This document shows positions 15,805 through 19,108 of a stretch of 64,000 bases of DNA, piece after piece. A model generated the notes under the pieces. The model was not told the DNA's origin. It saw nothing but the letters and a program-made list of their open reading frames with translations, and searched no databases. The DNA is taken from assembly GCF_054482595.1 (NCBI RefSeq), contig NZ_CM137008.1; one strand, given 5' to 3'. The first letter of the stretch is position 1. Each line of letters starts with the position of its first letter. A program made the position numbers and the translations under genes.

Positions 15805-16797
<993 letters not shown>

Positions 16798-16935
16798 TTA
16801 ATGAACTTAATGATACAGCATTACAAAAACAATCGAAGTTTATAAAATAACATTTTTATAAAGATGATTTCTGATTGACCAGAACCCTACCCTACAATGG
16901 TGACTAATTTTATTACTCCCGAAGGAGATGATGAC

Positions 16936-17439
16936 ATGAATATATCATATGTGAATAGCAACAAAACGACATCTTTACCTGTAGAGCTAGATACACTAAA
17001 TAACAAAGATATCTCTTATGCCAAAGATTTCTCTTATGCCAAAGATCTCTTTTTATATATAGAAACACAGTTAAAAATTGCAAAAGATTTTTGTAGACCT
17101 GGAGAAGAAGCATCAAGTTCTATTGCAAGTACAGTTTTTCACGCATTTATTGATTTAGTTAACAAAATCAGGGGTAAGAAAGATTTTATGTATATTTGCA
17201 CGCTTTGCTGTTTTGCCGAGGAGGTTAAAGGTGATTATTCTCATTACAGGACCTTTTTATTTGATATTGGTAATCAATATAAGGTTAAACTTACACAAAG
17301 CGGAAAAAAAGAGTTCTCTTTAACTTTAGAATTTAACGATACTATAATTGAATCTCAGAAAGTCACAGGCAATAAGGCAAAGCATATTCTTGAGGATATA
17401 GAAAAATTCTATCGTAACAAACCCGGCACTTATTATTAA
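16936..17439 (+). CDS. AT-rich hypothetical protein (orphan)
   Basis: ATG at 16936 with GGAG at 16924-16927; about 168 aa, no obvious TM segment or known motif; contains an 18-bp direct repeat x2 (17011-17046) encoding ISYAKD/FSYAKD. Confidence 0.5.
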   Translation: MNISYVNSNKTTSLPVELDTLNNKDISYAKDFSYAKDLFLYIETQLKIAKDFCRPGEEASSSIASTVFHAFIDLVNKIRGKKDFMYICTLCCFAEEVKGDYSHYRTFLFDIGNQYKVKLTQSGKKEFSLTLEFNDTIIESQKVTGNKAKHILEDIEKFYRNKPGTYY

Positions 17440-17662
17440 ATTTAATAATGGTTAGATGTGCAGAAATTATTACTCCACACGAAAAAAACAGGGAAAGGAA
17501 TTCCAGATAATTGGGATAAACTTAACAATAAAAGAACTAACAACGTTTATTATCTCTCACGTAGAACGATGGCATCAAAAAAAATCATCTATAAAGAAAG
17601 AGTGAAAGCGACGACAGTTTAATTTCACTGCAGGCTGGGTAACTCCAGCCTGCTTTCCTGCA

Positions 17663-18856
17663 TTACATCACCGCAGCAAACGCCTTTGCCACACGTTGTA
17701 CATTTGCCGTATTTAACCCGGCGACACACATGCGACCGCTGGCGATGAGATAGACACCAAATTCTTCACGTAGTCGGTCAACCTGAGCGGCACTTAAACC
17801 GGTATAACTGAACATGCCGCGCTGATTAAGCAGATAATCGAAATTGCGTTCTGGCATCTCTGTGCTCAATACCTTCACCAGTTCCTGACGCATTGCCAGA
17901 ATGCGAGTACGCATCTCTTCTACTTCCGCCAGCCAGCTGGCTTTCAATGCCTCGTCATTCAGCACCGCAGCCACCACCTGCGCACCAAAATTCGGCGGGC
18001 TGGAGTAGTTGCGGCGAACTGTTGCTTTCAATTGCCCCAGTACGCGGCCTGCAGCTTCGGCATCTTCACACAGAACAGAAAGTCCGCCAACGCGCTCGCC
18101 GTAAAGGGAGAAAATTTTCGAGAACGAATTGCTCACCAGAGCGGGTAATCCAGCGCTGGCAATGGCGCGAATGGCGTAGGCATCCTCTTCCATACCGGCA
18201 CCAAATCCTTGATAGGCAATATCAAGGAATGGGATAAGCTCGCGGGCTTTGAGAATTTCAATCACCGCATCCCACTGGTCATTAGTGAGATCGGCACCCG
18301 TTGGGTTGTGGCAACATGGATGCAGCAACACAATACTGCGGGCAGGTAATGTTTTCAGCATCGCCAACAGGTCATTAAAGCGCACGCCGTTAGTCGCTTC
18401 GTCATACCAGGGGTAAGTACTTACTTCGAATCCAGCCCCGGCGAATATTGCTACGTGGTTTTCCCAGGTAGGATCGCTGACCCAGACGCCTGATTCCGGA
18501 AAGTAGCGTTTCAGGAAATCCGCGCCCACTTTCAATGCCCCTGAGCCGCCAAGGGTTTGAATGGTTGCTACGCGCTGTTGTTGCAGTACCGGATGGTCGG
18601 CACCAAACAGCAGCGGCGCAATGGCATGGCGATAGCTGTTAAGCCCTTCCATCGGTAAATAAAGCGAAGCGCCATGAGGCACCGCATTCAGGCGCGCTTC
18701 TGCATCAGCCACGGCTTTCAATTGTGGAATAATTCCGTCTTCGTTGTAGTACAGACCGATACTTAAATTCACTTTGTCGCTGCGAGGGTCTTCTTTAAAA
18801 CGCTCCATAAGCGTAAGAATCGGGTCGCCAGCGTAGGCGTCAACTTTTTGAAACAC
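17663..18856 (-). CDS. tyrB: Aromatic-amino-acid aminotransferase
   Basis: 397-aa product from a GTG start ([16 protein letters not shown]...), class I aminotransferase PLP-lysine region [16 protein letters not shown]. Confidence 0.93.
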
Positions 18857-19051
18857 GCGATGGTTCTCCAGGTTTACGGGCAGGTGGTTAAAACACAATA
18901 AACCGGAAGAAGGCGAAGATCGAGTGGATGTTCAGGGGCGAACGGCAATTAGCAACAGAGTGAGACTCATGACAAACGTACATCCGCCAGAGGTACGACC
19001 TTTATAAGAGCATGAAAGAATATCAACTTATTGAATTGGTAGGATTTTATT

Positions 19052-19086
19052 GGCCGGATAAGGCATTCACGCCGCATCCGGCACAG
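19052..19086. repeat. REP element
   Basis: GCCGGATAAGGCATTCACGCCGCATCCGGCA between alr and tyrB. Confidence 0.7.
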
Positions 19087-19108
19087 ACAATCAAATATTA
19101 CAGAACGA

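Follow-up and report, generated by a model that had tools for sequence, protein, structure and literature searches.

An AT-rich orphan gene between aphA and tyrB of Escherichia coli that appears to be the full-length form of K-12 yjbS

The islet and its open reading frame

The DNA analyzed here, a stretch of 64,000 nucleotides from contig NZ_CM137008.1 of NCBI RefSeq assembly GCF_054482595.1 (hereafter the window), carries between the genes aphA and tyrB an AT-rich islet with a single open reading frame (ORF), which appears to be the intact, full-length form of the Escherichia coli K-12 gene yjbS. Translation of the window gives a protein of 167 amino acids, starting from an ATG at 16936 and ending at 17439 on the plus strand. 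A second ATG upstream, at 16897, would yield a mechanical ORF of 180 codons; the start codon annotated by the RefSeq Prokaryotic Genome Annotation Pipeline (PGAP) in strain XH990, which matches the window at every one of the 1,401 bases compared, is the ATG equivalent to 16936. The GGAG of the Shine-Dalgarno sequence that precedes this codon is retained in the O111 and K-12 alleles. The ORF has a GC content of 30.8% and the spacer between the two neighboring genes (16519–17662) one of 32.3%; measured in 200-bp windows, the value stays at 0.29–0.33 over approximately 16600–17600, compared with 0.46–0.58 in the flanks. An open frame of this length in DNA so rich in AT is beyond chance, as the stop-free run extends over 186 codons, against 74 ± 16 in dinucleotide shuffles of the islet, and only 1 of 2000 shuffles reached 167 codons or more.

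These results agree with a preliminary description of the locus, which had reported an ORF of about 168 codons with a ribosome-binding site in an AT-rich islet between core genes. Its view that the product has neither a transmembrane helix nor a recognizable motif also stands: the hydropathy scan found no transmembrane or signal segment in the 167-residue protein (maximum Kyte-Doolittle value of 0.89 over 19 residues), and searches of Pfam, NCBIfam, PADLOC and PHROGs returned no family, only noise (BamG with an E value of 0.031 and an unnamed PHROG with one of 0.07). The 18-bp repeat that it placed at 17011–17046 does exist, each unit encoding the hexapeptide K-D-x-S-Y-A, although Tandem Repeats Finder sets its limits at 17004 and 17050. 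The coordinates of all features are collected in Table 1.

Table 1. Features of the aphA–tyrB region in the window.
Feature	Position	Strand	Remarks
aphA	15805–16518	−	RefSeq annotation of a 100% identical strain
5′ intergenic region	16519–16935		between the divergent starts of aphA and the ORF; most conserved part of the islet
Variable AT-rich islet	16630–17664		~1.03 kb, ~32% GC; segment replaced by the kguSR island in B2-type genomes
Shine-Dalgarno sequence, AGGAG	16923–16927	+	8 nt before the ATG at 16936; read from the sequence
Protein-coding ORF, apparently full-length yjbS	16936–17439	+	167 residues, 19.3 kDa, isoelectric point 7.6
In-frame 18-bp tandem repeat	17004–17050	+	period 18, 2.6 copies; Tandem Repeats Finder
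G deleted in K-12-type alleles	17093	+	TTTTTGTAG -> TTTTTTAG
Frameshift hotspot	17301–17315	+	around the A7 tract (17304–17310); allele alignment
3′ non-coding AT-rich spacer	17440–17629		small ORFs not conserved; frames and stops shift among alleles
GC-rich hairpin, probable terminator	17630–17653		between the convergent ORF and tyrB; −19.2 / −19.4 kcal/mol on the two strands, z = −4.5 / −3.4
tyrB	17663–18856	−	RefSeq annotation of a 100% identical strain

The 5′ intergenic region presumably carries the putative promoters of both aphA and the ORF. A promoter scan of this part of the window found 6 promoter-like hexamers where 4.5 were expected, so that they are not enriched over shuffled sequences. 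The region also contains a rare 16-bp insertion (16839–16854), shared among the aligned alleles only with locus L007. A match of at least 99% to the 5′ flank of the window was found in only 62 genomes; therefore, the window carries a rare islet haplotype, identical to that of strain XH990. On the other side of the ORF, the alleles have four single-base indel positions in the 223-bp 3′ flank, and the small ORFs of the spacer gave no match above threshold to families of Pfam, PHROG or NCBIfam. We rejected one candidate there, an integrase relic: its match to the lambda Int arm-binding domain (PF09003) scored 13.7 bits, below the Pfam gathering threshold of 22 (E value of 0.068), tblastn produced no phage match at E values up to 10, no integrase of PHROG or NCBIfam was matched, and the reading frame is not conserved among alleles. 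The hairpin that follows is probably a shared terminator of the ORF and/or tyrB. It was not called by a consensus terminator scan because of its weak U-tract, and we count it as part of the islet, given that another hairpin stands in its place in B2 strains. In the islet region Rfam gave zero matches on both strands, and neither the repeat scan nor the annotation revealed mobility genes or notable flanking repeats.

Two further observations concern the surroundings. On the opposite strand, an antisense ORF of 67 codons (16916–17116) has a sub-threshold match to the Colicin-K immunity family (PF17500; 16.7 bits against 27, E value of 0.011), which we regard as composition-driven noise. Beyond tyrB, in the interval before alr (approximately 18900–19100 in the window), loci L007, L010 and L015 have a gene for an AAA-family ATPase, followed in L007 and L015 by pnuC. 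The window has only a spacer of about 250 bp there, and this is a second presence/absence polymorphism adjoining that of the islet.

Identity with yjbS of K-12 and consequences for annotation

The islet is also present in K-12, with a DNA identity of approximately 94–96%, and over the 504 bp of the window ORF the identity is 93.8%. The annotated yjbS of K-12, 67 codons long, begins at the same ATG as the window ORF, and its product consists of the first ~46 codons of that ORF and an out-of-frame tail. Over these ~46 residues the two proteins are the same, except for allelic substitutions and one repeat unit fewer in K-12. The deletion of G17093 shifts the frame, and the K-12 protein is therefore 67 residues long; farther downstream, a further base has been lost in K-12 from the A7 tract (17304–17310), which is reduced to A6. 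Synteny is maintained throughout, as the RefSeq annotations of XH990, O111:H8, an MG1655 derivative and 14 other loci all put the ORF in the aphA–tyrB spacer, in divergent orientation to aphA. Judged by sequence and position, the window ORF thus appears to be the intact, full-length form of yjbS. The K-12 protein (UniProt YJBS_ECOLI, b4621; NCBI "protein YjbS", 67 residues, uncharacterized) comes from the same locus and islet but is a truncated, frameshifted product, whereas the window encodes an uninterrupted protein of 167 residues.

The preliminary description had assigned only a small gene, yjbS, to this position in K-12. This view has to be corrected, since yjbS is the same ORF, cut short by the loss of G17093, in the same islet. 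The comparison of aphA–tyrB spacers that it called for does bring out differences: the spacer measures 1,108 bp in K-12 and 1,146 bp in the window, and in about 20% of genomes an island of 13.7 kb takes its place.

Databases already list the locus, under the name yjbS for K-12 and as "hypothetical protein" for other genomes. The exact protein of the window is public under the latter name (BBW72721.1 and others) on 473 contigs, there are related database entries from Shigella flexneri and S. sonnei, and in the literature on yjbS we did not find a functional study. Our analysis contributes two points: it is apparently the reference form from K-12 that is broken, and the RefSeq records examined call intact copies frameshifted or incomplete. 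Indeed, RefSeq/PGAP tags open copies of 161, 167 or 173 codons as "frameshifted" or "incomplete", or splits them into a pseudogene and an 83-residue "hypothetical protein", apparently because the truncated YjbS of K-12 serves as the reference protein. We verified by translation that such mislabelled copies are open (loci L001, L002, L008, L009, L011, L012, L017–L020 and L022).

Alleles, alternative state and distribution

To describe the states of the locus in the population, we searched 5,426 complete E. coli genomes with BLAST. With 16400–17800 as query, 4,331 of them contained the islet at a coverage of at least 80%, and its neighbors were aphA and tyrB in every case. The ORF alone matched 4,350 of the 5,426 genomes and the 5′ flank matched the same 4,350, so the islet behaves as a single unit. 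We then classed the alleles in 60 evenly spaced records sampled among the genomes that match the ORF. Matches in frame had a length of 504 bp in 27 records, 522 bp in one and 486 bp in another. The K-12 type, with a match of 484 bp (483 bp in one record), accounted for 22 of the 60, and the type of O157:H7 and O55:H7 (476 bp) for five; three records had a frameshifted match of 503 bp, and one had a partial match whose allele type was left unassigned. Among carriers in this sample, approximately 37% are therefore of the K-12 type, 8% of the O157 type and roughly half in frame, although these fractions are rough, as the genome collection over-represents laboratory and outbreak strains. Examples of intact alleles come from B1 strains such as O111:H8, O103:H2 and O104:H4.

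All 11 alleles of in-frame length that we fetched translate without interruption into 161, 167 or 173 residues, which correspond to one, two or three units of the 18-bp repeat. The unit is a copy-number-variable, in-frame mini-repeat in the predicted disordered N-terminus of the protein. In contrast, every disrupted allele carries an indel, and all of these indels except the loss of G17093 in K-12 cluster in the hotspot around the A7 tract. The tract is shortened from A7 to A6 in K-12 and in TUM18781, which has lost an additional T; strain A28 has lost a G, and O157:H7 and O55:H7 have a 10-bp deletion. In all, the alleles show at least four independent frame-breaking events. One genome has an IS1 in the islet, and evolution experiments have yielded IS1 insertions into yjbS (PMC4999529). 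The locus is, as had been suspected from the sequence, variable among strains: repeat number and integrity of the ORF differ among carriers, and the islet is exchanged for the 13.7-kb kguSR island in about one-fifth of genomes. Conservation of the DNA but not of the ORF, which the preliminary description had named as evidence against its proposal, is what we see in the K-12 type and the O157 lineages, but not in about half of the carriers.

In the ~20% of genomes that lack the islet, a segment of 13.7 kb with 49% GC occupies the same place. In strain Ecol_745 the homology to the window breaks off at ~16629, some 110 bp from aphA on its upstream side, and sets in again with the tyrB stop codon (17665), beside which the segment brings its own hairpin. 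Its genes code for a sensor kinase, a regulator that depends on sigma-54, a DASS transporter, an oxidoreductase of the Ldh family and a second sucCD/lpdA/odhB/E1 set. An island for the utilization of alpha-ketoglutarate, governed by KguS/KguR, has been described between tyrB and aphA in uropathogenic E. coli (UPEC) CFT073 (PMC3694859), and the 13.7-kb segment is this island (c5032–c5041 of CFT073). Although it is the alternative state of exactly the same chromosomal site, it is unrelated to the islet in sequence and function, being 13.7 kb long, of 49% GC and made up of a two-component system and metabolic enzymes.

The gene is restricted to Escherichia/Shigella, and we found no homolog elsewhere in the collections searched. 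A word-seeded search of 5.8 billion clusters retrieved 64 proteins, all of them alleles or fragments of the same E. coli/Shigella gene, and when 1.84 billion representatives were searched exhaustively with an HMMER profile, only 27 fragments of it came up. The protein search proposed in the preliminary description has thus returned only copies and fragments of this gene, none from outside Escherichia/Shigella. The ORF had zero matches in phage sequences, and the search of PDB sequences gave only SipA, with an E value of 0.7. Moreover, we scanned the species representatives of GTDB, one genome per species, with a degenerate codon pattern for FHAFIDLVNKI. The only match was a K-12-like E. coli contig in the assembly of Flavobacterium paronense; the E. 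coli representative of GTDB is presumably a B2 strain without the islet.

Other matches proved to be artifacts or probable artifacts. The Flavobacterium contig (NZ_JAUFQN010000013.1, strain CECT 8460, 9.5 kb) contains E. coli aphA and a frameshifted yjbS of the K-12 type, and is almost certainly E. coli K-12 contamination. Nothing supports an origin on a mobile element, as phages gave no match and the "plasmid" matches are mislabelled chromosomes, chromosome-sized replicons (E. coli records of 0.37–4.9 Mb) or contaminants. PLSDB record NZ_CP069917.1, a "plasmid" of 17,275 bp from Klebsiella oxytoca, contains the K-12-type yjbS islet, probably through contamination or misassembly. Two candidate divergent orthologs (P0063 and P0054) were likewise discarded, since they come from error-ridden assemblies in which all neighboring genes are fragmented too. 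Finally, a metagenome contig of 898 bp from ENA (P0064) encodes a predicted protein of 106 residues in which the N-terminal ~39 residues of the upstream-extended ORF are followed, at the C-terminus, by an HlyE/ClyA hemolysin segment (PF06109); chimeric assembly of this short contig is the probable explanation.

Silencing, constraint and the reading of the locus

Our best reading is that of an ordinary AT-rich orphan gene and not of a new system. More precisely, we consider it probable (approximately 0.72) that the gene, which encodes a soluble orphan protein of ~19 kDa, was acquired horizontally, is silenced by H-NS, weakly selected and dispensable, and decays by recurrent frameshifts in some lineages. 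The starting point would be a single-gene, AT-rich islet of ~1 kb, most likely of horizontal origin and present in Escherichia/Shigella only, which H-NS would coat and silence. A gene silenced in this way would be rarely expressed and dispensable, and purifying selection on it would be weak. Weak selection and dispensability would in turn explain why the frame has been lost independently in the K-12/phylogroup A type, in O157:H7/O55:H7 and in others, while it is intact in about half of the carriers.

A low frequency of Tn5 insertion in yjbS is read as occlusion by nucleoid proteins and not as a sign of essentiality. Published data place the K-12 copy in this setting: its insertion frequency is unusually low, as in the AT-rich ygeF, ygeG, ygeN and safA (PMC5821084), and the tyrB/yjbS spacer is a "promoter island" that is bound by H-NS in two chromatin immunoprecipitation sets (Kahramanoglou, Oshima) and overlaps a predicted genomic island (PMC3661553). 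Of all kilobase segments of the K-12 genome, the same spacer is one of the 20 that diverge most in GC content (PMC2575891). Two traits of xenogeneic silencing are visible in our data as well, as the islet is far richer in AT than its flanks and its distribution is patchy (4,350 of 5,426 genomes, absent where the kgu island is present). Like the AT-rich orphan genes and "promoter islands" known to be silenced by H-NS, such as the ygeF/ygeG/ygeN and yjbL regions, it has a GC content ~20 points below that of the genome, is restricted to certain lineages and lacks homologs. It differs from them in being a single gene without associated mobility, secretion or prophage genes, and in that H-NS binding is known for the K-12 copy only; by analogy with this copy, the intact allele would also be silenced.

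The classification of the K-12 spacer as an H-NS-bound promoter island (PMC3661553) could also suggest that the AT-rich DNA is functional in itself, as a nucleation site for H-NS or a "promoter island" with an insulating or modulating effect on aphA and tyrB, the ORF being incidental. The 5′ flank beside aphA is indeed the most conserved part of the islet, and the islet DNA has been kept in lineages in which the ORF is broken. Nevertheless, we hold this to be very improbable, as the ~20% of genomes without the islet still have aphA and tyrB, a frame open over 167 codons is unexpected for non-coding DNA of 31% GC, promoter-like sites are no commoner than in shuffles, and Rfam gave no match.

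The predicted structure of the product bears on a different alternative. AlphaFold2, run with a shallow alignment, modelled the full protein with a predicted local distance difference test score (pLDDT) of 63 and a predicted template modelling score (pTM) of 0.62, with residues 1–36, repeat included, disordered; for residues 38–167 alone, pLDDT rose to 77 and pTM to 0.73. The predicted topology (residues ~38–160) is one of three helices, a five-strand antiparallel beta-meander and a C-terminal helix, and the model has no convincing fold relative. The product would therefore be described as a soluble, presumably cytoplasmic protein of 161–173 residues, in which a disordered N-terminus with a variable hexapeptide repeat precedes an alpha+beta domain without detectable relatives. 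With low confidence, we would guess that it is a stand-alone binding or inhibitor-type protein and not an enzyme, a membrane protein or a protein secreted through Sec.

The best-recurring structural matches, weak as they are, were immunity proteins of the CdiI type (PDB 6cp9_B and 5ffp_A), which are also small alpha+beta proteins. Together with the fast evolution of the gene, the variation of the repeat and the on/off frameshifts at A7, they raise the idea of an arms race, in which the ORF would encode a protein of a conflict system, either an orphan immunity protein or inhibitor or a type III substrate. In its fullest form, this idea holds that the intact YjbS of 161–173 residues is functional and has a new fold, that it is normally silenced by H-NS and that it acts in a conflict or niche process (immunity, inhibition or host interaction), with slippage at A7 toggling its expression and repeat number under diversifying selection. 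We find both the general and the fuller version improbable. The CdiI matches lie below any accepted threshold of similarity and come with no sequence similarity, and no known immunity family resembled the product significantly in structure or sequence. No cognate toxin (CdiA-CT, Rhs-CT or other) lies beside the ORF, whose neighbors are only aphA and tyrB, with flanks that have no conserved ORF. Similarity in fold or sequence to a type III effector family, EspG/VirA-like or other, was not found either, and in the O157:H7 allele examined the gene is frameshifted. As for phase variation, the signs are mixed: A7-to-A6 alleles occur and nearby deletions cluster around the tract, but the tract is short, the off alleles are apparently fixed in their lineages, K-12 carries two lesions and the 18-bp changes preserve the frame.

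Returning to the reading of a silenced, weakly selected gene, the evidence for selection is mixed and points to weak amino-acid constraint. No nonsense substitution occurs in the fetched alleles, even though 5.4% of substitutions placed at random would produce a stop codon. Alleles in frame differ only by indels in multiples of 18 bp, while the non-coding flanks carry 1-bp indels. The pairwise ratio of non-synonymous to synonymous substitutions per site (dN/dS) of the ORF ranges from 0.13 to 0.73 and is typically 0.2–0.45. Among the variable sites of the ORF, 23 are synonymous and 43 non-synonymous, against an expected synonymous fraction of 0.21–0.26, an excess with p = 0.006 without transition bias.

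Several observations weigh against our reading. The synonymous excess becomes borderline when transition bias is included (p = 0.04–0.08), and the distribution of variable sites over the three codon positions (15, 22 and 29) is not significantly uneven (p = 0.11). Variable sites make up 8.4% of the 5′ flank, 14.5% of the ORF and 17.9% of the non-coding 3′ flank in the allele alignment, so that the ORF is nearly as variable as the latter, which implies weak amino-acid constraint. If all alleles are counted, frame-breaking indels in the ORF occur at about the per-base rate of the flanks. In addition, the H-NS and transposon data come from K-12, which bears a truncated allele, and the sampling of the genome collection makes the proportion of intact alleles approximate.

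Some of these points would favor a non-functional relic, that is, a former gene on an acquired fragment that drifts neutrally everywhere and whose intact copies are found in lineages not yet hit. The dN of the ORF, up to 0.078, amounts to 5–15 times the values for aphA and tyrB (dN/dS mostly 0.03–0.15 in these two genes), and together with the loss of the frame in several lineages it argues against strong constraint. The dN/dS maximum of 0.73, the site variability close to that of the non-coding flank, an overall indel rate equal to that of the flanks, the recurrence of independent frameshifts and the lack of a homolog or family fit a relic too. Against it stand the absence of nonsense substitutions and of any indel other than multiples of three in the 11 in-frame alleles, which span dS values of up to 0.2, the synonymous excess (p = 0.006–0.08), and a domain model from AlphaFold2 that is moderately confident despite the shallow alignment. 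All in all, we consider a relic unlikely, and weak purifying selection on a dispensable gene the better account.

The locus opens no long-standing question, and its main value lies in annotation. The K-12 reference gene yjbS is apparently a frameshifted remnant of a longer gene, and the RefSeq model based on K-12 distorts pan-genome and pseudogene counts at the yjbS locus. The site itself is a clean example of two chromosomal states, as it holds either the AT-rich islet of 1 kb with its orphan gene or the kguSR island of 13.7 kb. If our reading is right, it also illustrates how a silenced orphan gene decays through recurrent frameshifts at a homopolymer.
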